From the NCBI GenBank assembly GCA_047967505.1, contig CM106538.1: a stretch of 64,000 nt of DNA; one strand, 5' to 3'. Made by a program: the position numbers and the translations under genes. The notes below the pieces were generated by a model. That model was not told where the DNA came from and ran no database searches. It saw only the letters and a list, made by a program, of their open reading frames with translations. Source of the DNA: Dipteris shenzhenensis (lineage: Eukaryota). This document shows positions 2,379-39,503 of the stretch, one piece after another (within the stretch, counting starts at the first letter, position 1; every line of letters begins with the position of its first letter).

Positions 2379-3461
2379 TGTAGAAAAGGCCATACTGACA
2401 GAGCCAAGGTATTAGATTAAAGATACGGAACGAGTAAATGTAAAACTATTCTACATACCATTATTGGAGGGATCCCCAGTTTAAATAACTTTGAAGAGTC
2501 ACACAAGATAAGTTGCACTAGTTGAATTAAAATTATGGGTGACTTTTAATAAATATGAAGTCCATCAAATAAGTAGAGAGACCATAATGATTTTATTGCT
2601 TCAATGTTCATGAGTACTATCTCATAAACTTATTACAAGCCAAGATGCACAAAAATTAAGTAAAGAAAGCAAACCACCCAGACATAGAATGTCACTGCAC
2701 TGCTGTATAAAGAAACAATCCATACTAAACCCATGCAGATGTCATAAATTCCATGTGCACAAATCATGTAGAAGGCATCCGGCCTTCTTCATGTGTGACC
2801 TCACAGTAGATCAATCTTCGAGCAAATTAGTGGTACCCTGCATTAACCATAGAATGCACAACATACTGTTAGTGTGAGCAGGAGTAATCAGTATGCAAGA
2901 GTGTGTGTAGTTATATGTGTGCGTGTAAGTGTGTATGTAAGGGTGCACATAGAACTCTGTGTGTGTGCGTGTGGCGCACCCCCAACCCAGAGGATAAGAC
3001 CACATGGTGAGGGGTAACACAACAATACAAAGCAACTATAAACGCGCTTGATAGACGCGCAAAATAGCGGGCGCGTCTATAGGCATTGCTTGAATAGAGA
3101 AATTATGGGTGCATCTAACATCGTGCCTATTTACACGTGTATCGATGCGTCTATTAGTGCATCCACACTGAGAAAATATAGGCCCATCTAACACTGCATC
3201 TGTCAACGTGTCTATTTGTGCGTGTTTTAGCGCATCTATTAGTGCATCTACACTGAGAATTAGATGCGTATTTAGATGTAAAACAGAGAATACAAAAAGT
3301 GAGATTTTGGTATACGTCACTGCTTTCCAAACATTGCCCATGATTACCAAAGCACATAATTTTAACAAAAACATCAATGCAGCTTTTTTGCAAACCTAAA
3401 TTAAGTAAGGTGAGGAGAATGAGATAATATGTAAATTAGTTTTGCCAATATCAATGATGGG

Positions 3462-6400
3462 CTACGGTTCAATTTCATCCTCAATGAGATCAACCCTTGC
3501 CAAACTATCTACTTCAAAATCCAAACAAGTGTTTAGATCTACAAATACATTCAACCCACTACTACTTGTGCTACTCATGTGCTCATCGAAATCAGCATCA
3601 CCAATGGTAGGCTCGTCCTCATGGGTAATGGCCTCAATATCTATATCTCCTATCTCATGATCATCCTCCTCTCTCGTATCACGATCATCATCACCTCCAT
3701 GGCCATGATCATCCTCCATATGCTCCATGTTAGTAAATGTACTATACATCACTTTGGAACGTGGCATAATAGGTATGACACGCCACCATCTATTATTATC
3801 CACCATTCGTTGATAGACAACCTAATTCAAACACAAATACAATCATGTTATTTTCCTTGCATTGAAGGTATCAAATATTTAAAAGCGAGTATTTTTATAT
3901 GTGTGTATAGTACCTATTCACATTGTTATGGTAGTACTAGTGTGTCCTTCTCACTTTGCCAAAACTTTGTGGAGTCAATAGTTACAAAGCCACTTGCATG
4001 GTGTTTGATTGTTGCATTAGGGCCTCTTTCCACCACATCCTTAAACCACTTTACATCCAAAACATACACAAAGAAGTGTCGAAAGTCAAGCTTAATAATA
4101 TCTTGGATTATGCCATAATAATCATCCATGGCTCCATTGGCTCCCTCAAAGCTAGCAATGATGCCACAATCTTGTGTGTTTCTCTTATCATCAATCCGTT
4201 GTGTTCAAAAATGCTTGCCCTCACACCATATCCTCGTATCTTGCCACCCATCTTTTCATCACGTCACTATTAAGCACGCAATAGAAGTTAATATTATTAA
4301 GCAACTCCGTGTCTATTACTTTGTTGCGTCCTTTCCCTTGAGGCACAATAGAGGTCATCCTTAGGTCTTCATCATCTCTCCATAGTCGTGGGAGAGAGCT
4401 ATCCACATCAACAAGAAACTCAGAAATATATACAAGTGACTCTTGTACCAACCAACCCTCGGCCATGCTACCTTTGGGTCTTGCATTTTGTCTCATGAAA
4501 CCCTTCAAGGTCTTCATGAAATGCTTAAGGAAGAACAACCATCGTGCATGTATAGTATCACATATAGTAATCTCATCCACCAAATGCACTATGAGATATA
4601 GTTGGCTTGTGAGAATAGAACGTGGAAATGTCTCCTCCACTAAACAAACCACCTCCACTGACATAACTCAAGCATTCTCAAGCATGGTGGGATCTATTTC
4701 CTTTGAGCTCACATACCTAGAAATCAAAAAGTACACCATATTAGCAATATGAACACCTTGCATGGATCATTGATACGCATCACATTTTGTATCATGTAAA
4801 GTACCTCACAAGCTCACCCATCTTGTAAATACAATCCTTCATGTCTTTCGATGCACTGCGAGAAATGCTAGTATGTAGTATGAACTAAACACACAAGGAA
4901 TGGTTGATTAGTTGCTTCTAATTCACTCACAAGTTTGAAAGGAAAAAGATTCATAAAATACTTACTTGGAGCATCTTGTGCCAATCATGAGATTTCAAGC
5001 CATATAATTGCTCTACACCTCTTTTATTGCTCTTTGTAAAGGCCCCCTTCAAACACCTCATGCATCCAGTGGGAGTACGAATTGTAGTAATAGCACACTT
5101 CATCGCCACCATCTCTAGCTTTGATAACCTCCACGGTGCACGAGGTAAAAAAACACACCCATTTGGTCTCTCTTGTGGCCAAGCTTCATGCATCCTCCCC
5201 ATGGTACGTAGATCCTCCCTTATGCCTATGGAATCTCATGTCCCATTCAAATGTTCCCAAATGGTAGATGCCACATTCTTGAAGATATGCATGGGATCAA
5301 GCAGGTGATTGATCTTGAGGTGGGACCAATATGGTAAATGATAAAAGATGGAGTATCTAAACAAAAGCTGGTGTTAGCGGGCAATCTTTATTTCTAGCCA
5401 ATATAGCACACAATAGTTACAAACCCTTACCGGCTCATGCCAAGTGGTGGAGGAGTCATGGAACCATCCCAAATTCTCATCCAATCTCCCACAGTGAGTG
5501 ATTGTGGGAGGACTTTATTCCAAGGGGCAACATATCTAGGATGATCAGGTGGGAGAAATCGATGGTGATTCTCATAGATGACCTTATTCAATGCGTCTGC
5601 CCGTGAGGCAACAAGCAAAGGACCACAAACAGGACATGCATGGTAACTCGATGTAGTGAGACCTGAATAATAGACGCAATTAAGAGTTGAAGGTGGGTTT
5701 AGGGTGCCACATTCTTTGCCTACTCATAATTAGAAGTGCAATGCTTACCTGAACACTCGCCATAGCCTGGGAAGTCATGCATCATCCACATCAAGACTAC
5801 TTTGTAGTTAAAGTCTTGTGACGAGGGAGCCTGCTCACATCATGCACCTCGATACCTCTCCAAAGTATCTCTAGCTCACCAATCAAAGGCTCCAAATAAA
5901 CATCAGGATTTTCGACTTTATGTTTCCCTGGAATTAGAAGGGATAACATAACATGTCCTTTCTTAATCGCCATAGAGGGTGGAAGATTATAATTCACCAA
6001 TATCACTGGCCATACATTGTAAGACGTGCTTTTGAGACCAAATGGGTTCACACCGTTCATACCCAATCCAAGTCTCAAGCTCCTAGGTTCTTCTTTGAAG
6101 CTTGGCCATGTGTCTTCAATATGCTTCCATGCAAGAGTGTCTGCGGGAGTTCTCCACTTGCCATCGGTTGATCGATGGGAGGAATGCCATGACATGAGCT
6201 CTGCAATGGCACTTGAACATATGTTGGATGCGAGGAATTATGGGAAAATGTCACAGAACCGTATGAGGCACGTCCAAAGTTTTAAGATCTGCTCTATATC
6301 TTGCCTCTCCACGAGTAGGACACTCTCTTGCATCCTTATGTAGTCCACGAAACAAAACACAATCGTTCACGCATGCATGGATGCGCTTGTAATCTAATCC

Positions 6401-8592: not shown

Positions 8593-10015
8593 ATGTGGCC
8601 AAGAAGCTCTTTAGGCTCACTTGATCTTCAGGAGACTATCTTCCGGGAGTTATCTAACCTTTTGGGACACCCTCCCAATCCTGGGGAGTTATAGGGCTAC
8701 ATGATGGGTACTCTAAACACCCCCTAAGAGTCGGCACTACAGACTCCAAACCACCCCAACCCCACACCATCTGAGATTACCCCAACAGAGTCAACATAGC
8801 CCAGCTCGCTACACAGTCGAGCCCCTTCCCCCATGCCGTCAGGAGGCCCCTCTACCTCGCAGAGCCATCGGCATACTCCTGTGTAGTCGAGACTCGGTTC
8901 TCCAGCTACGAGTGGTCCACGTAGTCTCGTGCAATCGAGAGTCACTTCTCTAGCTATGAGTGGCTAGCATACTAGCTCGACACGACATAGTAGTCGGCAT
9001 ACTAGTAGGGAGAGTGGTGGGGGATGCATGGCATAGTGCTTTGGGAGGGGTGGTGGTGGGGATGAGGATGATTCAGATGATTTAGACATGCCTCCAGGTG
9101 ATGATACAATCTACTATGACATCACTCAGACAGGAGGCATCTTGATGGATGCACGGGGGAAGGACATCATGGCCTTCATGCGCTCTGTAATTGCTAACAA
9201 TTACAGAGATTGCTTTATCCACTACAAAGACCATCCAAAGAGATTGGCTGATGAGGCCCTCACTGCTGTTCGCTCTAGGTATCCTAACCCCCCCAATGTT
9301 CAGTTCACAGATAAATGGGCCAAGTCAAAGATTGTTATGATACTTGGCAATAAGAGATCTTCGCTTAAGAGGCAGGCACTAGTGGAGCTTGCTAGGCTCG
9401 AGGGAGGTCAATTACCAAGGGGCCCATCCCACACCGCTCACAAGCATGAGTGGAAGAAAGCAATGAAGTTAGCGAGGGAGGAACCCAGTCTGCAGCACGT
9501 GGAGGCACGAAGGATCCAAATGGAGCAATATGGAAGCGTGCATTTTGGAGCAGGGGGTGTTGAATCATGGGAGGACCAATTTGTAAGTATTGATCTTAAA
9601 TTATATTGTTTATGTAGTTTATTAGGAGGTTGTTTCTTTGTACTAACCCCTCCACAAATTGTGTCATCTTACAGCTTGATATCATGGGCAGGTACCCTAC
9701 TCATGTTAAGACAGCCTACCAGTGCCACCATCGCAGAGGAGATACATGGAAGCACTTCTATAATGACGGGTTGATTACTGAGAAGCAGTATATCTGGGCT
9801 ACTGGAGCGCCCCTCGAGGTATTTGAAAGTAATTAAATAATGTCAATATTATAAGCAAAGATTTGATTTTTCATACATTGATATATGTTGTCCCTTGTTT
9901 ACAGGCCCTTGCACAAGAAGATGAAAAAGAAGACGAGGAAAAAGGAGGCGGAGAAGGGAGCGCAAAAGGGAGCGTAGAAGGGAGTGAGGACATGGAGAAC
10001 TTAGATGAATCGTAG
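8593..10015 (+). pseudogene. CACTA accessory ORF2 (TnpA-position protein), three coding exons 8593-9582, 9675-9818, 9905-10015
   Basis: ATG at 8593 is in frame with ORF 9088 (a few stops in an S/P-rich N-terminus). Canonical GT/AG junctions at 9583/9674 and 9819/9904 keep the frame to an acidic tail and TAG. The ORF lies inside the TIRs. Confidence 0.65.
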
Positions 10016-12585
10016 AAGTAGTACTAGCTACTCTTTTTTGTACTTAAAGCCATTGGCTTGGCTTCATGCCTCTTGTCAATACACTCTTTTTATTTTGGCA
10101 CTTAAAGCCACAGGACGTGGCTTAGCTTCGTGCTATATGTACATATAAGCACTTTTTGAGCTATGAATTCTTTTTATTTTTTTGGCTTTCAATTTTCTTG
10201 TGCAACGTTCTATCAATTAATGCCTTGTGAACTAAACGTTTTGGAGTTGTAATGTTTTATTTGGAATTGTAATTGTCGGCTATAGACGTGCTTGCAAGAG
10301 TGCTAATTAAAATGCGGTTGGCTGTAAGAATTGAATTACACAATGTGGAAATGGGATTCCTGTAACTACATAGCATACACAACATACACATCATTCTGTT
10401 CAAGCACACAAAATTTAAAAAATATTATGTAGCGCGTCTATCAGGGCATTTATAAATGCATCTATATATGCGTCTGTCTATTTAAGGGGCATCTATTTGT
10501 GCATCTACAAACGCATCTATAAATGCATCTATAAATGTGTTTAAGGATGTGTGTGTCTGTTTTTTGAATTTTCTAGCAGAGCATCTATTTACACATCTAT
10601 ATGCGCATCTATAGGCATGTCTATCTACTATATAGACATGCCTTTAGATGCGGGTCTCTAGACGTGCAAATAGACGTGTAAATAGACACGCCTGTAAGCT
10701 TTTTTTTAGTTGAGTAAATGCGTCTGTGTGCACGTCTGTAGGTGCTTTGTCTTGTTGTGTAAGCCCACCATGTGAAACTTATTCCTCACCTGTAAAGAGA
10801 TCAATGAGTTTTGAAATCTCAAACTGTAAGCCAGGAAAGGTATTATTTTTCAAGGACTGCACGATATTCTTGGTGATCACATGTGTATTAAAACCATTAT
10901 TCCCAAATAGACCAATTAATCACATTAAATCAATATATTGCCCATGATGTATGTGAAGCATTGTAAATAAGGGGTAACACTTGTGAGACACAAACCTTGT
11001 ATGCAATATTCTTGGGTCTAGTCTAGTTGCATGAAAAGCGAACATTAGAACAAGGTAATTTATCTTTCTTCCAAAAGGTATGTGTTTCATAGCCACCAAT
11101 AAAAGGTCTAGCAGGCATAATGAAAGTATTCAGATAAGTGGTGGGTTTGATAGTGATAATCTTCAAAGGGTAGATACATAGTGGATCATCTGGATCAAAG
11201 GACTTGTTGTCTATGAAACAATCCAAGGCAAACCTATTGTTAATAAATATAAGATCATCCATAAACCGTGCCGAGAGATAGAAGGCTTTTAGTTTCTCCA
11301 TGTCTTTCAGTCTTGATAATTTGAGAATAAATTGGATCTCAAACCAGGCAAGATACAAGTTACACCAAAGTGGTGTTCACATGAGTATCCCATAGGAATA
11401 CCTTTAGTTTGTGCATATATATCTCCACCTAGCTTAGTGAAGCAATTGTCTAGTATAAAGATGTTAAGATTTAAGAAGTCTTTGAAGTTGACTGAACACT
11501 CTTTATATCTCCTTGTCAGCACAAATTGCTTCCTGGTTTTTTTAAACCCGAGGTAGCCAGCTTTACTGAGGATATTGATAAGTTTTTGAAGTGAGTCAAT
11601 AAGGCTAAACCTACCTTGGTGGGGAATGGCTTCATAGCATGACATGATGTCAAAGGTAAATACCGAGAACACACTCGCTGGTAGATTAATAAAAAAGTCA
11701 TACTAGTTGTGGATAATCCAATATGCATTTATGCGGGTGCGGGTAAAGGTCCACAAATCTTTATGAATACTTTCAGTGTATTCTTGAATACCAATATCAA
11801 GGGCAATCAACATTTTGGTAATCAGGGCAGTGATGTTCCTAAACATACAATTGTGAGCATTAGTAAGGCATCTAAATGCTTTTTTATGAGCCTTATACAT
11901 CCCCATGAGATAAGGGAAAGCTACATTAGATGGTTGCTCTATGCCGTATGATAATGAATAGATTCCAACATTTTCTGCAACATCATTTTTTGTGACCTGA
12001 GATATTACAAATTTCGCTGATTCAATTCTTTGCTTGGCAGTAGCAAGCTGCATTAGCTTTTTACATATGAAGGTAGGGGTCTGCAAGGATTTATCTAGCC
12101 TTGAAAATAAAGATGTTGCAAAAGATATTCCACTTCATCCATAATATTTTTGTCTAAAAACCATGGCTTTTGGTTGAACCTATGATTCGAAAAAGTGCTT
12201 TGAATTTGCTTTGAACAATTGCATTAATGCAATCCATATGTTCTGGATAGACATTGATGCCCATCCAGGAGCAAAGCTTAATCCAAGCAATATTTAGCTC
12301 TTTAATAACAGGGTAGGGGTTAATAGGTACAAGGGGAATATGATTGAGGCCTTTTCTCATAAAGTCTTGCAAGGTAGGGTGTCTACAGATCAGGGGTCAG
12401 TAGACAAAACATGGATACCCAGGTTATCAAATTTTTGAGTAAAGGTGCGAAATCTATTAGATGTGGCACAAATGCAAGCTAGGGATAACACTGCTTTGTA
12501 GAAGGTGGCAGCTAAGTTTCGCAGGAATCTCCATCCAAATCCAATATTAAAGGTAGACCATGACTTCTTAATAGCAAAATTTTCA

Positions 12586-13963
12586 AATACTTCTAGAAAA
12601 ATAAATTCTCGTGAAATACGATCAAAGAGTTTGTTAAGAAAAAGCAGATGGATAAACCTTTTTTATTTCCTTTTTCTTATGTTAAGCAAAGACAAACCAT
12701 TGCTTTAGTTGAGATAAATCATATTATGTTAAGCAAAGACAAACCATTGGCTTTAGGTGAGATAAATCGTACCTGCTCATCATCATTGCTAAACTCAAGT
12801 GCCTTAGAAGATTTGCCAAAGTCAACCAAACCGCGGAAGGACCGAGGCTGCTCAGTGGAACTCTTCATAGTCAAAGGAGTCAATGTAGGTCATTTGAGGT
12901 CCCTATTTTTTGCTAGGAGGAGTATAGCTTCAATGGTGTTGGCTGTTGGAGTATTGATGAATCGAGGTAGAAGTGCAGAATTCGAAGTGAAAATAGGTAG
13001 GTTACAAGCAGCCTCAAGCATAAAGTCATGAATCCAAAAATACACTAAGAGTGCAGTTTTGATCCTTGAGGGGAAAGAGGCAACCCAGCCAATGAGCGCA
13101 TACACCAGAGCAGGTCCAGAGGCAAAAGGAAAAAAAATAAACAAGTTTTGGAACACAAACCATAGGAGATGGTCCAGCCAGATAATGGAAGAAGTACAAG
13201 CAGAATTGGGGTCGGCGGATCTCTTACATTGGCCCTTGAGAAAGGGTCTATAGGTATTCCATCAATTTTTCATGAATACTTCCAGAAAAATAAATTCTCG
13301 TGAAATAAGATCAAAGAGTTTGTTAACAAAAAGCAGATGGATAAACCTTTTTGATTTCCTTTTTCTTATGTTAAGCAAAGACAAACCATTGGCTTTAGTT
13401 GAGATAAATCATATTATGTTAAGCAAAGGCAAACCATTGGCTTTAGTTGAGATAAATCGTACCTGCTCATCATCATTGCTAAACTCAAGTGCCTTAGAAG
13501 ATTTGCCAAAGTCAACCGACCGCGAAAGGACCGAGGCTTCTCAGTGGAACTCTTCATAGTCGAAGGAGTCAATGTACGTCGTTTGAGGTCCCTATTTTTT
13601 GCTGGGAGGAGTATAGCTTCAATGGTGTTGGCTATTGGAGTATTGATGAATCGAGGTAGAAGTGCAGAATTCGAAGTGAAAACAGGTAGGTTACAAGCAG
13701 CCTCAAGCATAAAGTCATGAATCCAAAAATACACTAAGAGTGCAGTTTTGATCCTTGAGGGGAAAGAGGCAACCCAACCAATGAATGCATACACCAGAGC
13801 GGGTCCAGAGGTGAAGGGAAAAAAAATAAACAAGTTTTGGAACACAAACCATAGGAGATGGTCCAACCAGATAATGGAAGAAGTACAAGTAGAATTGGGG
13901 TCGGCAGATCTCTTACATTGGCACTTGAGAAAGGGTCTATAGGTATTCCATCAATTTTTCATG
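12586..13963. repeat. 689-bp tandem duplication inside the PLE ORF
   Basis: 12586-13274 matches 13275-13963 with 'aat' microhomology at the joint. Each copy carries an older ~47-bp internal duplication. Confidence 0.95.
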
Positions 13964-14707
13964 AATTTTTTAGGCTCCCATATTTTATCTTGATTGATAG
14001 GTCCTTTTGTTCTAGCAATGAGGGAAGTACTAGAACATTTAGAAGGATTTACATCAGAGAGTTTAATTTGTGGGATATCAAAGAAAAAGTCATTAGACAA
14101 GAGATGTTTGGATTGGAGGGCTAGTGCTTTGCAATGATCAATCACCTCCGATGAGAAGCTACAGAAGAGGGCCAAGGAAGGGATCGAGAAAGGGGCCCTA
14201 TGATTGATGACTTCGAAATCCCAAAGTTTGTGCTCTAGTCTGATAGAGTCTAGTTCTAGTTGCCGATGATAGAGGAGGGGGATAGCATTGGAAAAGGCCG
14301 TGGAAATGGACTTCTAAGGGGGAAGAGAGGCGGCAGAAGACCCAAAATTCAAGGAGGATAAGGCTTCTCTCTCACTATGATCGAGGAGGTCAAAGTCAAG
14401 TAGCAGATTAACAAGTTCTTGAATGCTCTTGATCTCTAAGGGAATAGTCGGAATACCATTAAGAAGAAAAAGTTTATTAACAATTGAAGGGTAGAGAAGT
14501 AAAAGTTCAGGTGGGAGGTATCTTAGGCATCAATCAAAGGAAGGGAAGAAAGTAGCTTATTGAAAGCTTCCAAGAATTCCACTTGGCCTTTTTTGGAGAG
14601 GACCAAAAGCTCAATCCAATCATTCATAAAAGCTATGGTAAAGGCAGACTGGGATTTATTAAGGGACGCTTGCTTTTCAAAGTCCAAGAGCTTCTAATGG
14701 AAGTCCG

Positions 14708-16987
14708 TGTTGGGATAAGTGTGATCAAGGGCTTGCTCTATGGTGCATATGTGCATCTAGGGGAGTCACATGTGTGTTTGTGTGTGTTGTAGAGGCACAT
14801 CAAGTGCTATGATGTGTCTAGTGTATGAACTAAGTGATGATGTAAGCCAAGGGCCCCCACATGGGAGGTTCCTTTGATTTAGGCCAGTCCCACTGATGTA
14901 GGGGCTGATTGCCACTGATGTAGGGAAGGTGCTACCTTCTCCCCATTTCTATAATAGAGAGTCACCTCTCTCACAATCAATAGTAAACAATATTTTGGTT
15001 ACATCTAGTGCTCTCACTCCTCTTCCAAGATGCATCTATTCTATCCCACATGAATCTACATTTGGTATCAGAGCTTTAGGTTCTAGATCTAGCCTAGCCT
15101 AGCATTAGATGCTCTCTCTAGCATGAACTACTAGTTTTTCAAAGATTTCTCATCATCTCCATTTTTCCTCTTTCCTTCCAAAATTTTGTGTGAGCTTGTT
15201 CTCTACCTACAAGCAACCATTCTCCAAGCCCTTTGTGCTGTAGAACCATCTTTGTACGTCACCCCTTCAGCTCGAAGCTTGTCATGAAATTGCGCCTCCA
15301 TCGCCTGTGCCAACAAGAATACAGTCCACTGATGTATCGCATAATGCCGCCTCTGTGGTCACTCATTTGCAAATTCCTCTGAGCACGAGTTGGGTGACAC
15401 TACAAGCAAGCTGCTGATGAAGTCTGAGCCCGTTTGGTCAAGTATTAAAGGAGCAACAGACAAAAGACCAGTCAATTTTGCCAAGCTCCTATATGGCGAC
15501 CTAGCGCAACATTGTGCCTCTTCTTGTTGGTAGCCCTGGTCTGGTATACTAGTGTTATTTTTGCATAAAAATCCCCTTGAATAGAGCTACGAGCTATGCA
15601 AATTGCACCCTCCAATCTACCTTGGTCTCTGCTGACAAAATTCTGCATATTTTGGTCAAAGGGTGTTGAGCAATCACCATAAGTTTGGGGCTTCTATTAT
15701 TTACTACAAACTTTGATTGCTTTGATTGTACTTGAGTAGTAGAACTCAGTCATGGAGCTCATAAGTGTCCTTAAACTTTGCATTTAGAATGATGAATATG
15801 TGATTCTCTTTTGATGAGTACTTGAATTGTAAACATGACTAAGCCCAAGCAAGTAGAGAAGTTTGATGGAACTAGTTTCCATACTTGGCAAACAAAAGCT
15901 AACTTTGTGCTTATGAAAAAGGGGATATGGAATGTTGTGAATGGAAAGGAAAAGAAGTATACAAAAGAAGAAGCTAATTGGTTGATCGAAGACAAGAAGG
16001 CTCTTGCTATCATTGCTTTGGGATTAAGTGACTCATACATTCACCACATTGATGGCTTTGAAACTTCACATGAAGCTTGGGATCATCTTCTCATAGTATT
16101 TGGTGCACAAGGGAAATACTTCAAATATATCTTGCTTATTAAGTTCCTTTGGCTACAATTGGAAAAGGGAATGTGTTATTCCATGAATTCAGAACAACAA
16201 CTCCAAAGAGAATCAAGCATTTCTTGTGAAGAAGGGCTACTTCAACAACAAAGAAAATCTGGCTGAAGGACGAACTCCATCAGCAAATGAAGAATCAAAC
16301 TTTGAAGATAAAGACTATGCTTTTTTAGCACTTTGTTTTTTGAATTTTTTGTTTATCATCACTTGGTCAAATTTTGAGGTTCTCTGCCTGGAATAGTACT
16401 CCAAAAAGAATGTCATATGTTTTGTCTTTTGTAAATCACCTCTGGTCAACATATGATGTAGACCATGTGATATGTGTTTTGTCTATCCCATTTTTGTGAA
16501 CCTTCACCCTTGGGAACACTTGCTAGCATGAGATCCTAGCCATAGATTTACCCTTGACCACCATGAGATGGCATGAGAAACTATGAGACTAGATGTACCC
16601 TTGACATTGCAAGAGCCAACCCCTTGAGGGGGGGTATGTTGGGATAAGTGTGATCAAGGGCTTGCTCTATGGTGCATATGTGCATCTAGGGGAGTCACAT
16701 GTGTGTTTGTGTGTGTTGTAGAGGCACATCAAAGAGTATGATGTGTCTAGTGTATGACCTAAGTGATGATGTAAGCCAAAGGCCCCCATGGGAGGTTCCT
16801 TTGATTAAGGCCAGTCCCACTGATGTAGGGGCTGATTGCCACTGATGTAGGGAAGGTGCTACCTTCTCCCCATTTCTATAATAGAGAGTCACCTCTCTCA
16901 CAATCAATAGTAAACAATATTTTGGTTACATCTTGTGCTCTCACTCCTCTTCCAAGATGCATCTATTCTATCCCACGTGAATCTACA
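14708..16987 (+). mobile_element. Non-autonomous gag-only Ty1/Copia element (2.28 kb)
   Basis: LTRs 14708-15060 and 16637-16987 (TG...CA, near-identical). PBS tggtatcagagc at 15063-15074 (tRNA-iMet). PPT gagggggg just before 16637. Degenerate 5-bp TSD gtccg/atctg. Confidence 0.93.
15835..16266 (+). pseudogene. Truncated Copia gag
   Basis: EKFDGTSFHTWQTKANFVLMKKGIWNVV..DKKALAIIALGLSDSYIHHI..TSHEAWDHL is a typical Copia gag N-terminus. No pol follows. Confidence 0.85.
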
Positions 16988-17790
16988 ATCTGATCCTTTA
17001 AAGCAGGAAGGGATACATTGTGTGCCTAAAGGCGTAATTGGGATATTAGGTGAGGTAGCTACATATCCAAGTTTGACAAGGGATGGGATGGGATGGGTAA
17101 CCAACAGTCTCTCAATACCAAATATGGATACAAAGTTAAAATGTTGAATCTTTCTAGTAATCCAAGATCCGAGGTCGGGGTCAACTTGCCTACCACCATC
17201 CAAGAGAAACTAAGTGTGAGAACACAAAAGCTTCTAATGGGTAGACAGGTAATGCTTGTGTAGCCCGGCTTGTTATCGCTCTTACCAAAGATCCAGATAA
17301 CCATCTAGATTCAAGAGTTAAAAGTGACATATGTGCCAAGTAATAGGTGAGCATGCGTAGTCAATAATAAGAATGTACACCCTTACCATTGGGGGATCAA
17401 TCCCAATTTATTCCTATCCCACTTAAATATACTTACTGAGGTAGCATCCCTAGGTTAGACAAAGACATACCATTTACCTACTAATAAAGTTAAACTATAC
17501 TTATGACATCGTATAATTATACCTTGACAACCTACAGTAAGAATTCCAAAGCAATAAGTAAAGGATAACTTTAATATAGAAGGAAAGCATTTCCTAAGAT
17601 CATAAAGAGAACACATTCTGAGAGGGCAGGACTAGTCAAGGTAAACAATTGGTTAACGAAAAATAATTCTTTAATTCACTTTCAAACAAAAGCATGAAGT
17701 GTGTGGGGTACGCCTTCCAAATTAACAACTATAAGGAGTACAAGACATTATTTTTAGAGAATATAAATTCCATAAATGCCTCCCCAAAAG

Positions 17791-20142
17791 TATGTTTCAA
17801 TGCGCCATGTGTGTCAAAGACCATCAAACATTTATTTAAAGAAATATAACCATCCATTGGTAGCACATAGATGACAAAAGCTTTAGGGATAAGTTCATAT
17901 GGTTAAAGAATCCAGACAAACATAGACCTAGAGAACATTAATTAGAAGCAAGAACACCATAGAAAAATGACAATTTCATAGACCTAGAGAACATTAATTA
18001 GAAGCAAGAACATCATAGAAAATTAACAATTTTTCAGTAAGGGAACATTACTAGTTAATTACTCTGTAACAGATTTGAGCCAGTCATTTAACATAGACCT
18101 AAGGTACAAATTACACTAGGTTATAAGCATGGAGCATGCACTTACAACCACATCCTCATAAATATAAGAGTTAAAGGAGGGACAAATAAACATACCCCAG
18201 ACAAGCAACCAAGAATACTAACCCGGCTAGAAGGTGGCTATAGTCTCGCACACAGAAAACCAAAGAACACGTAGACACAAAAGGTGCATAGCAAACCAAA
18301 ACTTCCAAAGAACACAGACAACATACAGGTACCCACTTCACTACAACCACGTCACTCTACAAATATGACAAGCTACGTATACCTGCCACAAACTATGCTA
18401 GAGCTAACCAGGAAGGCCACAATACTAGAATCCTAACCAAACAAGCCAAAAGCAACAAAAAACCGAGAAGCCGGCTAGTAGTCGTAACCAGTGTGCCAAA
18501 CACCAGTATACCGTTGAAGTCCACTAACTCCTAACACCAAAGTGCCACCAAACAAGCACACGAACTCCACTAAGAGCAAGCCACAGCAACATACTAACTA
18601 GCAAGTATCCACCCGCAATCAAAACCTTGATAGAGGAAAAGAGAAGCATGAAAAGCTACAAGGTACGTAGGTAGGAGGAAGAGGCGTAGGTAAACAAGGC
18701 AATAGGATCCAGCTAACCATCCCATTCTAGCTTGGATAAAGAGACAATGGCGACTAAGTACTACTACGGTAACTGCAAGCAACAGACTTGTAACACGACG
18801 AATGCAAGTGTAAGAGTGACCCAATGATCGTGCACAAGGGTAGTTGCAATTGAGAATGGGGATCATCTATGAAATAAACACAAACAAGGGTTGGTCAAGA
18901 AGTAAAGTACATAACACAGACCGTGCGCGAAGGATGGCCTCCATAGGTAATAAGCCCAACCATGCAATCAATAAACATATATGTGAATTATCATACAAGC
19001 TAGCAGTGTTAGTGGTCGTGATCCTGGTTAACCATTGTTGAAAAGCATCAAAGGAGCAGGAGCCACACCATGAAGGATCATTACGATGTGGATGCAACAC
19101 ACGTAATAAGTAACCACACACTTATTGTCCAAGACAGAGACATGTGGTATATTAACACAGGACAAGAGAGACTAACTACAGAACAATGCGAAACCTACAG
19201 GACTAGGCAAGAGCGCACGAAGCTTGGGGTAGGGAAACCATTGCAAAAAAACCCCTAACCATATTGACAATGGGCCTTGCACACTAATTAGCCATCATCC
19301 ACAATAGCCTAACAAGAGACCATAGCAAATCACCACAGAGAACGACCAGGGGAGCAAGTGTCCTCAGCTCACGAGAAGAACCAGAAGCCATGCAATACGG
19401 TGATTCAAACGGGAGGGTGCACACATAGAAACAATGTACATTCTAGAAAGGTCATGCAATCAAAATCCTCCAATTGCTTAGAGTAGTGTAACGCACTATC
19501 AAAGGTTCTCTCCATAGCATGAACAAATATAGCACCAACCAAAGAGAACACAATATTCAGGGTCAAAGTAGATCCAAGATATCCAGCGAAGAGTTATCCA
19601 GAATAAGTGACTTAGCTCTAACCCTGCCACATGATGTTGTGTTGCGTGGAGGAGGAGGAAGTCGTTATGCCAACACCACCAAGATACTAAGCAGAAGTAA
19701 CCGCGAGCAAGAAGAGGAAGTAAGTCAAGTGAACTAGGCAAGGTCGGTTAGCATAGAGAAGAAGGAAGGAAGGAGAAGCTCAAGGGTGGTGTAAAGGAGG
19801 TGGTTGCCACCAGCATCCACCAAACATCCATAATCATAGCCAATGTTCAGAACATTTCTAGGGGAAATCACGTGTCCATCCTACCTCCCAAGCTCAATTT
19901 AATCTCATCATAATGAGTAGTAAGACGCTAAGATAATGCAATGAAGTCCACCAATAGATGTGTATAATAGATTTATTTATTCGACTCAACAGATTATGCA
20001 CCTAAAACACTAAGCTAAACAATGTGTGTGGAACGCGTGTAGGGAGAGCTTGCTATTCAAGTTGTAATATTAACATTTGCTTCCATCCAAACTTAATCAA
20101 TCAAGTTGTAATAGTTACAATTGCTTGCATTTACTATTACCA
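17791..20142. repeat. Long direct repeat, copy B (5' pseudo-LTR of the PLE)
   Basis: Colinear with 18-2378. Confidence 0.95.
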
Positions 20143-32408: not shown

Positions 32409-32950
32409 ATGCCCTTTGGGCTAACTAATGCCCCAGCTACCTTTCAGTATTTGATGAACCAAAATTTGGTCCTTATCTCTTCAAGTTTGCACTTGTGTTC
32501 TTTGATGATATACTCATATACAGCAGGAGTAAGGAAGAGCATTTGCAGTATGTTGCTAAGGTTTTGGAGATTCTCAGGTTGCACCAGCTATATGCCAAAC
32601 CTTCTAAGTGCTCTTTCAACAAGCAGTTTTGGGATGTGCTTTTACGTGTGAGCTCTTACAAAACAGTCCCCATCTCAGAGCAAGCTGAAAAGTATTGTTG
32701 TGGTCTTCCCAAAGAGTTGAGGGACTATTGCACCAAGACACACATTTCCAGTATGTTACAGTTGATAGAGAATGCCAACATAGCTTACTCACTCATGCAG
32801 GGCAGAGTCTCAGCAACTTCAAGGAGGAGCCAAAGAAATCACAGCAAGCTGGAAAAGTCCCTCTTAAATCAAAGTTTGTGGCAAGACAAAGGAAAAGTCC
32901 CTCTTAAATCAAAGTTTGTGAAAAAGTCTCTCTTAAATCAAAGTTTGTGC
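32409..32950 (+). pseudogene. Chimeric Gypsy RT fragment fused to a gag-like fragment
   Basis: MPFGLTNAPATFQ / FFDDILIYSRSKEEHL..LYAKPSKCSF (RT) runs into KQFWDVLLRV..EQAEKYCCGLPKELRDY (retrotransposon gag-like). Confidence 0.7.
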
Positions 32951-33325
32951 CGCCTCCCACCCGTTGCACTCCTTCTCTCCATCCTTGCTGCTCTCTCCAC
33001 CTTCTCTAAGCTCTCTCCATCCCTTCATCCTTCACTCTCGGACTCTCCATCCTGATTCCCTCGGACCTCTCCTTCTCTCTCCATCCTCTTCATCCTTCTC
33101 TCCATCTTCTCCATCCTGCAAGCTCCAGCTTAGCAACCTATTCTCCATCCCTCCATCCTCCTCCTCTCCATCCTCTCTTACCTCTCCATCCTCCTCCACT
33201 TCTACCTTTGATCCTCCAGGCTCCTTCTACCTCTCCATCCTCTTTTACCTCTGAGCTCTCCATCCTCCTTCTACCTCTCCATCCTTTCTCACCTCTCCAT
33301 CCTCCTTACCCCTCCATCCTCCTCA

Positions 33326-35255
33326 ATGCCGAGAGATCCTTATTGGGTCCATGTCTCCCTCCTGGATAGTTATAAAGGAGGCGGTGGCTCCAAGAAGTGG
33401 AGATGCAACTATTGCGGCATAAGCAAAACGGGGTCTGTCACACGGGTGAAAGACCATCTAGTAGGTGCTCCCGCAAGGATATATGACCTTGTGAGTTTGT
33501 GCTTGCTCTTGTGAAAGGTGGCTTAACAGAATGTAAGGCAACTTTGGCTGCAGAAAGTGGAGGGCAAGGGCTGCAAGATGAAGAAGAGGCTGCTAACACT
33601 GAGCCATTGGATGATGCTAGCACATTGGGCTCTGTAAAGAGAAGGAGAGGGGCATCAACTACATCGAGCGCGGGTCCTAGTGCTACAAAAACACCCTTGC
33701 CACATGTATCAATTAGTGTGGATGCTAGTGCGGGAAAAAGAGAATCACTGCAAAGGTCTAGCATTCAAGCACGCTTGCAAAAGCAAGCAGTGAAGGAGGC
33801 CGCGAGTGAGCTCACAAAGCTCTTCATACAGTGTGCAATACACTTTCATGTGGCGAAGACTACACGATGGAGCAAGGCCATGAGAGACGTGAGCCGCATT
33901 GGGTATGAATGGGAAGGGCCTACAGATGAGGCCTTGCGGATAAGAGAGCTAAGAAGAGAGAGGGAATGTGTGGAAAACCAAATGAAGCCCTTGAAAGAGA
34001 CTTGGAAAAAATATGGATGCATACTCTTATGCGATGGATGGTCGGATACACGCAGGAGGAGTGCGTACAATATTTTAGTATCTTCTTGAGAGCCATAGAC
34101 GCTTCCACTGTAGGTACAGTGATTACAGGGTTGTATATTTGGGAGCATATATGGGCAACCATTATGGAGATAGGTGCTGAGAATGTGGTGCAAGTGGTGA
34201 CAGATAATGGCAGCAATTGTGTGTTAATGGATGCTGTGTTAGAAGATGAGTTCCCTAAGATTGTGTGGACACCCTGTGTCTCACATTGCCTTGATCTTTT
34301 GATCAAGGACCTAGGGAAGATACATGCCATCTTCTCCACATCCCGCAGTATTGTGAAGTTTGTCATGAAGAGACCCAAAGTCCTTAGCATCTATCGGGCT
34401 TACAATGACCTCCAGCTACTGAAAAGCGAAGCTACAAGTTTGCTTACATGTTCATAGTGGTGGAGAGGCTTATGCGAGTGCGCCAGGGCTTGTTGCGCAC
34501 GGTTGTGTCTCGGGAGTGGGGAGATTGGGATGATAGAGGCCAAGCAAAGTCTATCAAATTTGTCTGCATGATCATGGATAAGTATTGGTGGAATTAGGCA
34601 GAGGTATTAATCAAATCGATTAATCCTATCTACATGGTGCTTCGCATCACGGACATGGAGGGAAGCACATTAGGGCTCTTGTACGAGTTTATGGACAAGA
34701 TTAGAGAGGCCCTGAATAAAAACACTTTCCTATCGCCTAATAAGTAAGACTTTTTACTTTTTGTAATATGTATAGTTATTGCAGTTACTAAATTGCAATT
34801 TGCTATCAAAGCTTATGGTTGGAGCCTGGAATTTTTAGATATGTATTATTTATGTGTTATGAATTTTGCATGCATAATTTCTTGTGGCATGATTTAGGGT
34901 TGAGTCCATCCTTGCTATATGAAATAAGCAGTGGAATTGGTTCCACCGCCCAATCCATGTGGTGGCACATGTATTGCATCGTGCTATATGAAATAAGCGG
35001 TGGAATTGGTTCCACCGCCCAATCCATGCGGTGGCACATGTATTGCATCCTTTCTGGCGCAGTCAAGAGCAATATGAGAATGATGAGTTGGAGGAGGGGA
35101 TGCAACAATATCTACAAAATTGGACGGGTGGTGACTTGGAGATGCAACGAAGAATGGATGATGAAGCTGATGGGGATCCAAATGGGTGAGTTGATCCACT
35201 TGAGGGCAGCCCATGGTAGAATAGTGCAGGCGAATGTTCCCATGGGGGTTGGTGG
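33326..35255 (+). pseudogene. hAT transposase (BED finger + DUF659-type core), truncated by a Gypsy insertion
   Basis: DPYW..KWRCNYCG..GSVTRVKDHL; WKKYGCILLCDGWSDTRRR; EIGAENVVQVVTDNGSN; WTPCVSHCLDL. Preceded by a (ctctccatc)-rich tract at 32960-33325. Confidence 0.92.
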
Positions 35256-38200
35256 TGTCACTAAGTTGTAAATATCCTAAGTCTTAATTTCTCCTTTCAA
35301 GCAGCATGATGTTGTACTTGGTACACCGTGGTTCCATCGAAAGGAAGTAAAGATAGAATACCCTGAGAGGGTACTGAATTTTATCCATAGAGGGAAAAAC
35401 CAGCGTTTAGTTGCTAGGAATAAAGGGGAAACTATTCCCATTGTATCTGATGTTACATGTGGTAAAGCAATAAAGTCTGCAATTTTCGCATACATGGTTT
35501 TTGTAAAAGAAAAAGAAAACGATATGCATGTTGAAATGAATGATGCAGACAATGATAAATTTCAGTTTCTTGTGAACTTTAAAGATTGTTCTTCAGATGC
35601 TTTTCCAGGGGAGTTACCCCCAGAGAGACTAGAAGATTGTTAGATAGAGTTAATGCATATATGCAGACTTAGCCTTGAGATTAGGGATTGAAACTAAAGA
35701 GCTAGGCAGAGCTCTTGATGCTGATCAGATGTTCCTTGGGGATCCAGTGCAAGTCACTCCTTTGCTTGGAAAGCTTCGTGTCCATGTACGGAATTATATA
35801 GATCAGGAGGACTTCTTAATTTCTCCTCTCAAGCAGCATGATGTTGTACTTGGTACACCGTGGTTCCATCGAAAGGAAGTAAAGATAGAATACCCTGAGA
35901 GGGTGCTGAGTTTTATCCATAGAGGGAAAAACCAGCGTTTAGTTGCTAGGAATAAAGGGGAAACTATTCCCATTGTATCTGATGTTACATGTGGTAAAGC
36001 AATAAAGTCTGCAATTTTTGCGTACATGGTTTTTGTAAAAGAAAAAGGAAATGATATGCATGCTGAAATGAATGATGCAAACAATGATAAATTTCAGTTT
36101 CTTGTGAACTTTAAAGATTGTTTTTCAGATGCTTTGCCAGGGGAGTTACCCCCAGAGAGACCAGAAGATCATCAGATAGAGTTAATGCCTGATAGTGAGC
36201 CACCAAATAGACCACCTTATAGAGTCAGTGCGATTCAAAGAGAGGAGATTATGGCTCAGGTACAGGACTTGCTGTCCAAAGGGTTGATTCAGCCCAGCTC
36301 ATCTCCTTTTTGCTCACCGGTACTTCTAGTACAGAAGAAAGATGATTTTTTTCGAATGTGTATTGATTACTGCGCATTAAATAAGATGACCATCAAAAAT
36401 AGATTTTCGATACCATGCATAGATGATGTGCTTGACCAGCTTAGAGAAGCAACCGTTTTCAATAAGATAGACTTGAAGAGTGGTCAGAATACAATCACAA
36501 GATGTGTATAAGACAGCTTTTCACACTACATTTGGGTTGAATGAATACTTAGTGATGCCTTTTGGATTAACAAATGCTCCAACCACATTCAATAGAATGA
36601 TGGATTGCATCTTCTGAAAGTATAAGCACTTCACAGGGACTTTCTTTGATGATATCCTAGTCTTCTCAAAGATAGAAGAGCACAGAGAACATCTTGCTTT
36701 GGTGTTTCAAGAACTTCGAAATCATCAGCTTTTTGCCAACAGCAAGAAAAGTGAATTATTTTTTGAAGAGATCCATTATCTAGGGTACATATTATCCAAG
36801 AATGGGATACAGATGTATTCTGCAAAGATCCGAGCCATCCAAGAATGGCCAGAGCTGAAAACTGTGCATGAAGTCCGTAGTTTTTTGGGACTCTGCTCCT
36901 ATTACAGGAGATTCATCAGGCATTTTGCTGATATTGCAGCTCCACTACATGATCTTACCAAGAAAAATGCAGCCTTCACATGGGAAATGTCGCAGAAGAA
37001 AGCATTCAATACACTCAAGGAGAAATTGACTACAGAGCCTATTCTTGTAGTCTCGGATCTTTATCAACCTTTTGATGTTGATTGCGATGCTTGTGGAGAG
37101 TGTGTTGGGACTGCATTGCATTAGAATGGACATGTAGTAGCATACGAAAGCTGAAGATTGCGTGATGCTGAGAGATATTTGGGAATCTAGTTCATGCTGT
37201 GAATACATGGAAGCAAAAGCATATGAAATGGGCAAACATGCTGTCAATGTATCATTTTCAGATTGTCCATACTCCGAGAGCAAGAAATAGAGTGGCTGAT
37301 GCCTTGTCCCGAAGACCTCAGGTACGTAATGTGATAATTGCACATCACATGGATCTTGAGGAAATGAGGGAGCAATATGCCAATGATGTTGATTTTGGTG
37401 AAATATTTCAGCAAATACAAGAGGGACAGTCATCCAGTCAATATTCAATGAAAGATGGGTACTTGATGAAAGATGACTATTTATGCATCACCCAAGAGAT
37501 GAGGCAAAAGATTTTGGATGAATGCCATGCACCTCCATATGCAGGACACCGAGGGATTGCAGCCACAACCTAAGCTATTGAGAGGTATTTTTATTGGCCA
37601 GGTATGCGCAAGGACATACATCAGTTTGTCACAGAATGCCTTACTTGTCAAAAAGTCAAGTATGACAGACATAAGACACTTGGTTTATTGATGCCTCTTC
37701 CCATGCCTCAAGCACCATGGGAAAGTATTGCAATGGATTTTATCTTTGACTTGCCACGGTCAAAGTCTGGAAATGGTGGAATATGGACTATTATTGATAG
37801 ATTTAGTAAGCAAGCCCATTTTATTCTAGTGCGCAAAACCATAAAGGCTGATCACATGGCCAAGCTCTTTTTGGCACATATTTTCAAGCATCATGGTATG
37901 CCTAAATCCATTGTCAGTGATAGAGACCCCAGGATGACTAGTTTATTCTGGAGAGCTTTATTTGATAATATGGGGACAAAACTGGAAATTTTCCTCTACC
38001 ATCTGTTTGAACTGGCAAATTCAACAGTTTTGGATCTGCTGAAATGCTACGTGGCTGAGCAGAAATCAGATTGGGAAAAGTATCTCCCACTAGTGGAGTT
38101 TGCTTATAATAATACAATTCACAACTCCACTGGAAAAGCTCCATTTGAGGTCATTTATGGGAAGGTGGTTCTTCCACCCATACTCAGGACCAAAGATGAG

Positions 38201-39503
38201 ATATTTGCAACTTTCAGTCAGGTTTGGACAGCCATTGAAAGATCTTAGGAAAAGCACAAGAAGGCTGCAGATAAGCACAGAAGGCAGATGGATCTCAAAG
38301 AAGGAGATTGGGTACTCCTAAAGTTTGAGAAAGCAAGGCTCAAGAAGCTCAAGGGTAAAGAAAAAGTTTATGTTAAGCTATCTCCTAGGTACTATGGACC
38401 TTTTCAGGTTACAAAAGAGAGAAATGAGGCGGCTTTTAGATTGGACTTACCAGAGCATTGCAAAATTCACAATGCTTTTCATATAAGGCTTCTCAAGAAA
38501 TTCCAGGGACTCCAGCCTTCAGAACCAATAATGGAAGATCCACCAGAGGTGGAAGAGCTGGAGGAAATCCTTCAACCATAACAGATTGTGTATCATGCGG
38601 TACGCAAAGGTCCTCATGGCAAGGAATTTTACAGATTTCTTGTAAAATTCAAGAACTATTCGGCATTCAATACCAAGTGAATGGATGAAGACATGTTGTC
38701 CAATCATCCACAGCTTTTGGATGTTTACAAGGAAGCTTTTCAGCTGAGGTCAACTGAATAGAAGCCGAGGGGATGTCACCAAGTTGTAAATATCCTAAAT
38801 TAAAGTATTGAGTTGACCATTTATTTGATCATAATTAAAGAGTTTTTCATTTGTATTAATGATGGTCAAAGAGTCCCTTTAATGGTAAAAGAATTGACTT
38901 TGGTCAAACAACCTAACTTCGGTTAGGAAGACTTGGTTTAATTAACCAAGATGTGCCAACTTCGATTGGAGAGACTTGGCATTAATTAAAGTGCTTTGAT
39001 GAATAATCAAGCCTGTAATTATTTATTGAGAGGGGTTAATCTCGATTAACTCAAGAATCTGTTTATATATATTTGTTATGTGCGTACATGTGTTTAGTGG
39101 GAATGCCCTCAGTGACTAGGATTAGTCAACAGTTTATTTTTCGCATGCAAAGCGATAACAAGTAATGGGTGCCATGGTTATGCGATTAATTTAATTGTTG
39201 CAGTATAAGAAAGGTTCTAGACTTGGGCATTGCGGAGCCCCGTGAGCGATTAGGAGCTATTCGTGTGACCAAGTGCTAAGAAGACCCCAGAAGACCTTAC
39301 CCATGGACATGGGATTAAAACTAGGCTAAAAATTAGACAAGTGGAAACTTGCCAAATGAATGAGCCACGAGCTCTTGTAAAACAATTCACGTTTTGAATT
39401 TCTGTAACACAGCTCTACGCTGAACTTTGTATTCAGATTCTCTTTCATGAATAAAGACCTTCGGGGGGGTCCAGCCTGACATGTTGTCTTGCGCCCTAAT
39501 GTT

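Follow-up and report, generated by a model that had tools for sequence, protein, structure and literature searches.

The locus described here is probably a single, long-dead copy of a Penelope-like element (PLE) of the PLE-X type, an endonuclease (EN)-less member of the Naiad/Chlamys clade, in a transposable element (TE)-rich nuclear genome of plant type. Elements of the PLE-X type are already in print, and the window (the whole 64-kb stretch of DNA that was analyzed) adds a new, decayed member. The broken element occupies positions 10779-14693 on the minus strand and contains a CxC linker, a reverse transcriptase (RT), and a thumb, preceded by an N-terminal extension; judging from sequence comparison, both parts are homologous to the PLE-X of Chara and Selaginella. 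Decay has left stops and frameshifts in it, along with a tandem duplication of 689 bp, and a Copia element abuts it; the copy is dead and without functional consequence. One copy of the family was seen in the 64-kb window, with no second PLE fragment within it.

Coding capacity and affiliation of the reverse transcriptase

The region encoding the CxC linker, RT, and thumb (10779..12704, minus strand) was delimited with tblastn, motif blocks, and read-through, and is interrupted by four in-frame stops and five frame breaks. In tblastn searches, residues 57-719 of database protein P0003 (719 aa) and residues 5-539 of P0002 align to 12704-10782 with 39-52% identity per segment. The window frame ends at the same point as P0003, with its final stop at 10781-10779, directly after the ..FTGEE of the thumb. 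Translation and alignment place the leader at the N-terminus of the RT protein at 12396..12662 (minus strand); it contains FxHLxFxNK..DxI, the CxC (ACICAT), and HVLSTD. The motifs quoted in an earlier note on this DNA, as well as the stop after ..FTGEE, are all found in the minus-strand translation, which contains FIHLLFLNKLFDRI, ACICAT...HVLSTD, KGLNHIP, LDKS..TFICKK, GIPMG, and RFMDD. The frame described in that note is real but heavily broken, and its supported coding span (14693-10779 less one duplicate) comes to ~1,075 codons, not the ~1,200 given there. An intact element would consist of two parts, the extension region and an RT protein of ~700 residues, the latter made up of the clade-specific CxC linker, RT, and thumb and ending right after the thumb.

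The RT profile retrieved 5,314 proteins at E<=0.001, and gave no match at E<=1 against PDB sequences. A Pfam GIY-YIG domain is present at the N-terminus in 11 of the 35 listed matches with a long N-terminus, and a local profile adds seven more. The blocks CxC, HV.T.D, GLNHIP, DK, YKxHK, motif A, GIPMG, and [FY][IM]DD align across the window, Selaginella, Chara, and the GIY-YIG-bearing relatives, the DK motif (in Chlamys, a 'DKG' motif whose third residue is not conserved) reading LDKS in the window, with DKA or DKS among the relatives. Naiad/Chlamys elements have an insertion-in-fingers domain (IFD) between RT2a and RT3(A); the distance from the YKxHK of RT2 to the Asp of motif A is 82 residues in the window and in P0002, P0003, P0004, and P0008 alike, a comparison that contains no canonical IFD-less PLE. 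In an RT tree of 63 rows (unrooted, from a quick search, and without canonical PLE, Athena, Coprina, Dryad, or TERT references), the window groups with P0002 (SH-aLRT 100) and then with P0003 (100), and this group is sister to Selaginella P0012/P0010/P0175 with an SH-aLRT of only 87. All 18 GIY-YIG rows form a separate clade on a long branch (SH-aLRT 100), and the Chara clade falls in the same unresolved region as the window group. Of the phylogenetic placement proposed in the earlier note, this tree covers the position with Selaginella PLE-X and apart from the GIY-YIG clade. Identity of the window RT to database proteins is at most 48% over aligned columns (P0002). The CxC, DK, and RT blocks, together with the tblastn relatives, bear out the earlier assignment to a Naiad/Chlamys-type PLE RT, one that appears nearest to Selaginella PLE-X and outside the GIY-YIG clade.

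Duplication, Copia insertion, and limits of the element

Self-comparison of the window resolves two tandem units (12586-13274 and 13275-13963) that were duplicated after insertion of the element and correspond to the 689-bp duplication reported earlier. The units are 96.2% identical (26 substitutions and two 1-nt indels) and take in the last part of the extension domain together with the first part of the RT protein. The Copia insertion, likewise reported earlier, was located by its LTRs and Pfam at 14708..16987 (plus strand); it is an internally deleted, gag-only Ty1/Copia element of 2.3 kb and not part of the PLE. Its LTRs (14708-15060, 353 bp; 16637-16987, 351 bp) are 97.4% identical, its primer-binding site is of the tRNA-Met type (TGGTATCAGAGC), and its gag matches Pfam Retrotran_gag_2 at 15826-16266 on the plus strand. 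No target-site duplication flanks it (5-bp flanks GTCCG versus ATCTG).

The Copia element marks the upstream limit of sequence that can be assigned to the PLE. The frame had been thought to read KGSD-FH straight across the Copia site, yet a stop follows at once after the join. The stretch beyond (16988..17354, minus strand), which was part of that frame, is closed in all frames (7, 5, and 4 stops per ~122 codons) and found no match in homology searches with the relatives; given these stops, the lack of a matching relative, and the missing Copia target-site duplication, its inclusion in the element is unsupported. At the other end, a repeat search found degenerate 12-nt tandem repeats (10434..10690; unit ~GCATCTATAAAT) beginning ~90 bp 3' of the PLE stop codon, which may be either the element's own 3' repeat or a repeat into which it inserted. 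No upstream copy of the 3' region, as expected of a pseudo-LTR, was found in the window. Fragments of TEs and genes occur to either side of the PLE.

Endonuclease, telomeric repeats, and ribozymes

A profile built from 11 GIY-YIG-bearing relatives was run against 1,222 six-frame pieces covering the whole window, and its best match (E 0.8) is located elsewhere in the window; as a positive control, the same profile recovered seven additional EN+ proteins. On the C-terminal side of the RT thumb, where the frame stops at 10779, the profile likewise detected no GIY-YIG domain, nor did it detect one at E<=0.1 in 401 pieces from four related metagenomic loci (L001-L004). The window PLE thus appears to lack an endonuclease at either end, as the earlier note had it, although the EN of Naiad, placed there at the C-terminus, is N-terminal in the account of Naiad elements given by Craig et al. 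2021 (PMC8557442). Also in agreement with that note, the plant telomeric repeat is absent from the 64 kb (0 matches to (TTTAGGG)2 with one mismatch allowed), and the element is interstitial.

The absence of GIY-YIG could in principle be secondary, the window copy being an ordinary EN+ Chlamys/Naiad element that lost the domain through decay, truncation, or the Copia insertion. The copy is indeed badly decayed, the Copia element leaves its 5' end undefined, and 5' truncation hid an N-terminal EN in earlier annotations according to the relevant section of Craig et al. (PMC8557442). However, what lies upstream of the CxC linker is the PLE-X extension and not the remnants of an EN, the closest relatives for which upstream sequence is available (L001-L003, Selaginella, and Chara) are also without GIY-YIG, and the window RT falls outside the GIY-YIG clade. 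Secondary loss is accordingly regarded as highly improbable, and an EN-less PLE-X element remains the preferred reading. Copying of such an element would proceed by target-primed reverse transcription from 3'-OH ends not cut by a GIY-YIG nuclease; these ends might be supplied by pre-existing nicks or breaks, or by the cuts of another nuclease.

The published PLE-X families described in Craig et al. (PMC8557442) have canonical hammerhead ribozymes, and it speaks against the PLE-X reading that none was detected here, either as an Rfam match (gathering threshold for the whole window; E<=5 for 9500-18500) or with a regular expression for the core motif. The metagenomic loci L001-L004 also gave no hammerhead match at E<=1. 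The window copy is decayed and shows no recognizable pseudo-LTR, the place in which a hammerhead would be expected.

Conservation of the N-terminal extension

The conserved PLE-X extension, with the motif W..RPFLKCQC-X9-C..WLDH..W, was identified with tblastn and profiles at 13513..14334 (minus strand) and contains two internal in-frame stops. The C-terminal half of the extension recurs in the downstream duplicate (12893..13261, minus strand; profile E 5.6e-12), where the first Cys of the CxC has changed to Gly. Open frames further upstream (14335..14693, minus strand; pieces 14523-14693 and 14314-14529) are candidates for the N-terminal part of the extension protein; comparison of the upstream conserved block of the Chara proteins with 14526-14693 gave only a non-significant E of 1.5. 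The frame at 13414-14529 contains 3 stops in 372 codons, versus 23 and 30 in the other two frames, and shuffles of it (n=2,000) contain a mean of 17.7 and a minimum of 6 stops. This N-terminal frame is far from chance.

The N-terminal residues had been regarded as unassigned, but they are homologous to the extension of Chara and Selaginella PLE-X. By tblastn, the window extension matches the N-termini of six Chara braunii proteins (P0054, P0143, P0083, P0038, P0127, and P0021; E 1e-7 to 4e-18), and Selaginella P0175 matches it at E 1.5e-6. A profile made from Chara alone, containing neither window nor Selaginella sequences, matches three window pieces at E 1e-12 to 1e-15 (the best at 1.2e-15 and 1.2e-13), Selaginella P0175 at 3.6e-14, and P0012 at 7e-4 to 1e-6. 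The ORF1 sequences of L001 and L003 match the window extension at E 4e-15 and 6e-16, respectively. The motif W..RP[YF]..CxC..C..WxD..W is common to the extensions of the window, Chara braunii, and Selaginella moellendorffii, with W, C, C, W, D, and W unchanged in all 12 extension sequences compared. An intact element would have an ORF1-like region of ~430 residues with a core of ~220 residues (W-x4-P-x3-C-x-C-xn-C-x5-W-x-D-x3-W). In the PLE-X account of Craig et al. 2021 (PMC8557442), an N-terminal extension with 'CxCX1-8C' is described for the EN-minus PLE-X of Chara and Selaginella, with BlastP matches in mosses; the Cys spacing of the window copy, which is dead, is KCQC-X9-C, one residue above that range.

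Possible function of the extension

The extension has no Pfam family match, and its profile found no match at E<=10 among PDB sequences. Of the structural check that had been suggested for the N-terminal region, AlphaFold2 and Foldseek were run, but the models are poor and no usable fold match resulted. Mean pLDDT was 42.5 with seven sequences and 56.6 with 12, the core of the latter model (240-330) reaching ~66-77. With this 12-sequence model, the best Foldseek E-values were 2.7 (PDB) and 0.32 (BFVD), and the best hit of a wide VIA-align search (Z 5.3) covers 55 residues of low-confidence N-terminal helices. These fold searches carry no weight against a nuclease, the models being too poor and the conserved core barely tested. 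In the ESM Atlas, residues 55-300 of P0054 matched unnamed clusters only (TM<=0.37). For the L003 ORF1, the matches were unnamed clusters (0.90-0.91) and viral coat-protein families (0.86), to be taken as no more than leads.

Three metagenomic relatives (L001, L002, and L003) encode the domain upstream of an RT frame of ~760 aa and in a frame apart from it, and in L001 and L003 this upstream frame ends in an RGG/GR-rich tail. The separate frame in all three loci and the RGG-rich tail in two, together with the presence of a single invariant acidic residue, suggest a nucleic-acid-binding, ORF1-like role for the extension; the RGG tail is absent from the window copy. The extension would act as a zinc-binding module for nucleic-acid binding, RNP assembly, or targeting, rather than as the nuclease.

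The contrary proposal is that GIY-YIG was replaced by the extension itself, as a new endonuclease or integration enzyme, which would make the element EN+ in function. It occupies the position of the EN in Naiad/Chlamys elements, it is conserved in Chara, Selaginella, the window, and the metagenomic relatives, and the 12-sequence AlphaFold2 model, poor as it is, places strand-strand-helix around C-x-C...C...W-x-D. Moreover, the PLE-X section of Craig et al. (PMC8557442) reports insertion of the Selaginella families at one precise 28S site and of the Chara families genome-wide, with no known EN. Yet the alignment contains a single invariant acidic residue, which disfavors a classical nuclease site, and the Selaginella copies have Ser or Cys in place of the His of 'DH'. 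Neither Pfam nor PDB sequences provided a match, and hhalign to GIY-YIG N-termini returned a probability of 0.1%. We therefore consider a nuclease extension improbable and retain the nucleic-acid-binding role.

A somewhat broader formulation, in which the Cys3/W-D-W domain is a new integration module (a nuclease or a sequence-specific DNA-targeting domain) that succeeded GIY-YIG and is apparently encoded as a separate ORF1 in some lineages, is also unlikely, if marginally less so. If true, such a module would account for the fact that EN-less PLEs of streptophytes insert in some cases specifically in 28S and in others at dispersed sites, and with a separate ORF1 these elements would be the first in the Naiad/Chlamys clade known to be dicistronic.

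One reading frame or two

In the window, the reading frame changes between the extension and RT parts. The two may be distinct genes, an ORF1 and an ORF2 in a dicistronic element, with the frame change near 13414-13520 native, rather than parts of one frame of ~1,100 codons; we regard this as a substantial possibility, though short of an even chance. ORF1 of L003 stops at a TAA, after which an ATG in the RT frame comes within ~25 nt, the two parts of L001 are separated by a 118-nt spacer with four stops, and RT-only ORFs of ~700 aa are common among the RT-profile matches. On the other hand, L001 has no ATG before the conserved RT-leader motif, and the gene models of Chara and Selaginella are fused, with an intron inferred in the corresponding passage of Craig et al. 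(PMC8557442). The window duplicates, moreover, lose their frame at different 1-nt indels (12830 and 13392), so that a single frame is possible as the ancestral state, being one of four equally parsimonious states.

Comparison with known elements

Athena and Coprina, which are EN-minus and telomere-associated, have additional upstream ORFs. The window element is also without an endonuclease, but it is interstitial, without telomeric repeats, and its RT has the CxC linker of Naiad/Chlamys. Canonical PLEs with a C-terminal EN (Penelope/Poseidon, Neptune, Nematis, Hydra, and the conifer Dryad) differ from the window element, which has no C-terminal GIY-YIG. With Chlamys/Naiad it has in common the CxC linker, DK motif, RT blocks, and an ORF ending after the thumb; where these elements carry an N-terminal EN, however, the domain of the window element is unrelated to it. 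Only an analogy can be drawn with LINE-type ORF1/ORF2 elements, in which an upstream nucleic-acid-binding-like protein is followed by an RT protein. The likeness includes the RGG-rich tail and short inter-ORF spacer of L001 and L003, but LINEs have no sequence relation to the window element, which has an RT of PLE type and neither an APE nor an RLE endonuclease.

The closest counterpart is the PLE-X of Selaginella spp. and Chara braunii (e.g., PLE-X1_sTam), which likewise combines a CxC linker, RT, and thumb with the homologous CxC...C extension and no GIY-YIG; exactly this architecture is set out in the PLE-X description of Craig et al. 2021 (PMC8557442). The same description places Chara PLE-X at dispersed, non-rDNA locations, as in the window, and Selaginella PLE-X in 28S rDNA, unlike the window.

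Implications

How PLE-X elements integrate without an identified EN is a question stated in the literature, in the PLE-X discussion of Craig et al. 2021 (PMC8557442), and the window adds one more host lineage to it. The nearest database relative of the window RT has only 48% identity to it, which implies a broader spread of the family in plant-type genomes than the small number of published cases would suggest. Sequence comparison reduces the conserved core of the extension to a few invariant residues, and in three uncultured relatives the domain occupies an upstream frame of its own, which in two of them carries an RGG tail. Together, the invariant residues and the separate upstream frame provide concrete constructs and mutants for the bench.

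Structure and decay of the element

The minus-strand locus is a decayed Penelope-like element (PLE). Six-frame reading, together with tblastn searches from the closest two database proteins, P0003 (719 aa) and P0002 (543 aa), locates a protein comprising a CxC linker, reverse transcriptase (RT) and thumb at 12704-10782 (-), with per-segment identities of 39-52% between the RT part and these queries. All motifs quoted in the earlier note are found in the minus-strand translation (FIHLLFLNKLFDRI, ACICAT...HVLSTD, KGLNHIP, LDKS..TFICKK, GIPMG and RFMDD), and the frame does close right after the thumb, as that note had it, at a stop codon (10781-10779) lying exactly where P0003 ends. This part carries 4 in-frame stops and 5 frame breaks. 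Two tandem 689-bp units (12586-13274 and 13275-13963), which are 96.2% identical and two 1-nt indels apart, lose the frame at separate 1-nt indels (12830 and 13392). A 47-48-bp unit lying between extension domain and RT leader occurs twice within each duplicate (12677-12768, 13366-13458); it codes for FISTKANGL.LLNII and then an in-frame stop that is common to both duplicates and thus older than the 689-bp duplication. The region upstream of the duplication, 13414-14529, was formerly coding: over 372 codons the frame read there has 3 stops and the other two have 23 and 30, and 2,000 shuffled sequences gave a mean of 17.7 and a minimum of 6.

An internally deleted or non-autonomous Copia element of 2,280 bp occupies 14708-16987 (+), with LTRs of 353 and 351 bp (97.4% identical), a tRNA-Met-type PBS and, inside, only a gag remnant. 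Its 5-bp flanks differ (GTCCG versus ATCTG), leaving no target-site duplication, and the sequences on either side may therefore not have adjoined originally. The earlier note had continued the frame across this insertion, but the sequence past it (16988-17354) contains 4-7 stops per ~122 codons in all three frames and is matched by no relative (tblastn with the collected proteins; profile search), and the 'KGSD-FH' join meets a stop immediately. Together with the lack of a target-site duplication, these results confine the element to 14693-10779, which after removal of one duplicate amounts to about 1,075 codons rather than the ~1,200 proposed.

Degenerate 12-nt tandem repeats (about GCATCTATAAAT) extend over 10434-10690, from ~90 bp past the PLE stop codon, and weak miRNA-model matches there were rejected as repeat artefacts. 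Insertion into simple repeats and internal tandem repeats are reported for Chlamys and Naiad elements, and either may apply here.

The host genome is TE-rich and of plant type, with PPR, CACTA, Copia, Gypsy and hAT fragments in the window. These include CACTA-type transposase fragments at 4221-6237 (-) (Pfam Transposase_21, E 3e-37; DUF4218, E 3e-19), Gypsy-type pol fragments at 32429-38248 (+) (RVT_1, RT_RNaseH_2, Integrase_H2C2, rve), a hAT-like DUF659 piece at 33487-34089, further RT/RNase H matches at 49673-50862 (tblastn with the collected proteins), and a pentatricopeptide-repeat (PPR) coding fragment at 43010-43414 (+) that supports a plant nuclear origin. Also present are a two-copy 56-bp tandem repeat (17921-18032, 94-95% identical) and, ~1 kb from the PLE on its 3' side, a 245-codon open frame (9037-9774, +) whose N-terminus is acidic and which matches no Pfam family.

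Affinities of the reverse transcriptase

A profile of the RT part, searched against 1.84 billion representatives, recovered 5,314 proteins at E<=0.001. Among 35 listed hits in which the match begins well away from the protein's N-terminus, 11 had Pfam GIY-YIG at the N-terminus, and a profile built from these 11 N-termini added 7 further GIY-YIG proteins. Their alignment displays a CX2-5CxxC finger as well as Cys and His residues within the GIY-YIG core, which, going by the description in PMC8557442, would be Naiad-type features. The window shares with the GIY-YIG-bearing relatives a CxC...HV.T.D linker, the DK motif and the RT blocks, placing its RT in the Naiad/Chlamys assemblage with N-terminal endonuclease (EN) as described by Craig et al. 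2021 (PMC8557442); the same source contradicts the C-terminal position that the earlier note had given the Naiad EN. In the window itself, the GIY-YIG profile run against 1,222 six-frame pieces (>=30 residues) gave a best E of 0.8, far from the element. The earlier note's main reading, a Naiad/Chlamys-type PLE that lacks an EN and has a long N-terminal region, is borne out. The window also contains no telomeric repeats and no rRNA or other Rfam family.

In a quick IQ-TREE search (63 rows, 670 columns; unrooted and without canonical PLE references), the window groups with P0002 (SH-aLRT 100) and then P0003 (100), and this trio is sister to a Selaginella clade (87) and then to P0006/P0008/P0011 (85). 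The Chara clade of PLE-X, the EN-minus Chlamys subgroup, falls within a poorly resolved region that also holds the trio, and all 18 GIY-YIG rows form one clade on a branch of length 1.49 (support 100). Additionally, many metagenomic RT-only ORFs of ~700-780 aa begin just ahead of the CxC linker (P0004, P0005, P0007), some with a hydrophobic signal-like N-terminus (e.g., MLRLLCLALLLLVCSGAPG), indicating several deep EN-less branches besides PLE-X.

Homology and arrangement of the N-terminal extension

The N-terminal region, considered unknown in the earlier note, is homologous to the published Chara/Selaginella PLE-X extension. When all collected proteins were run as tblastn queries, six RT-bearing ones aligned through their N-terminal parts with 14334-13513 (E 1e-7 to 4e-18), all six of them Chara braunii gene models, and a second, partial match lies inside the downstream 689-bp duplicate. 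A profile built from the Chara segments only finds three window pieces (E 1e-12 to 1e-15) and two Selaginella moellendorffii proteins, P0175 at 3.6e-14 and, among 1,223 targets, P0012 at 7e-4; P0175 as lone query recovers the window piece at 1.5e-6. The common core is W-x4-P-x3-C-x-C-xn-C-x5-W-x-D-x3-W (WNTYRPFLKCQC-X9-C..IWLDHLLW in the window), and 12/12 sequences agree on its W, C, C, W, D and W. Craig et al. describe a 'conserved CxCX1-8C motif' in the N-terminal extension of EN-minus PLE-X from Chara and Selaginella, with BlastP matches in mosses (PMC8557442), and the window extension is this 'unique N-terminal extension'. The element is thus a previously unreported, dead copy within an already published subgroup, and the earlier observation was largely right, save for the stretch past Copia and the ORF length. 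The copy differs from PLE-X as published in three respects: no hammerhead in the window, a Cys spacing of X9 instead of X1-8, and a site outside rDNA, the last as in Chara.

One metagenome scan gave four loci (L001-L004), of which those bearing the extension correspond to the P0006/P0008 branch, judged by eye from common N-terminal sequence. The extension lies directly upstream of a ~760-aa RT frame in L001 (E 1e-46), L002 (1e-29) and L003 (3e-38), and is continuous with it in none of these. In L001 the two are separated by a 118-nt spacer holding four stops in the same frame; in L003 the upstream frame (ORF1) stops at TAA, followed within about 25 nt by an ATG in the RT frame, and L002 is arranged similarly without the ATG. 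In L001 and L003 the upstream frame has an RGG/GR-rich tail at its end. An extension linked to the RT thus occurs in four branches, those of the window trio, Selaginella, P0006/P0008 and Chara. The window ancestor may have had a single frame, a gene split by an intron, or two ORFs. Searches of all four loci for GIY-YIG-like pieces (E<=0.1) and for hammerheads (E<=1) came back empty. In L004, a relative of the P0004/P0005 branch, a 574-aa frame at 2813-4534 (+) overlaps the RT-frame end by 8 nt; it ends in a Gly/Arg/Lys-rich tail, has no similarity to the PLE-X extension or Pfam, and may open a following tandem copy as its first ORF.

Possible role of the extension

Searches with the extension returned no Pfam family, no match in a PDB sequence profile search and no usable lead from the Atlas, and its hhalign probability against the GIY-YIG N-termini was 0.1%. 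AlphaFold modelled it poorly in both runs (mean pLDDT 42.5 and 56.6); around the motif, where pLDDT reaches about 66-77, the core shows two short strands followed by helices. Fold searches gave nothing above background, which carries little weight given so weak a model and a core that was hardly tested. Of the acidic residues just one is invariant, and the His beside it is Ser or Cys in Selaginella, a pattern that fits a helical domain with a small metal site built on Cys better than it fits a classical nuclease centre.

How PLE-X elements insert without an identified EN was posed as yet to be explained by Craig et al. (PMC8557442); our literature search found no later work on the mechanism, and one 2026 paper, in its available part, only re-uses PLE-X sequences. 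The metal-site-like residues and the RGG tails favour an ORF1-like role for the extension, probably in nucleic-acid binding or targeting, and priming would then proceed from 3'-OH ends not cut by the element itself.
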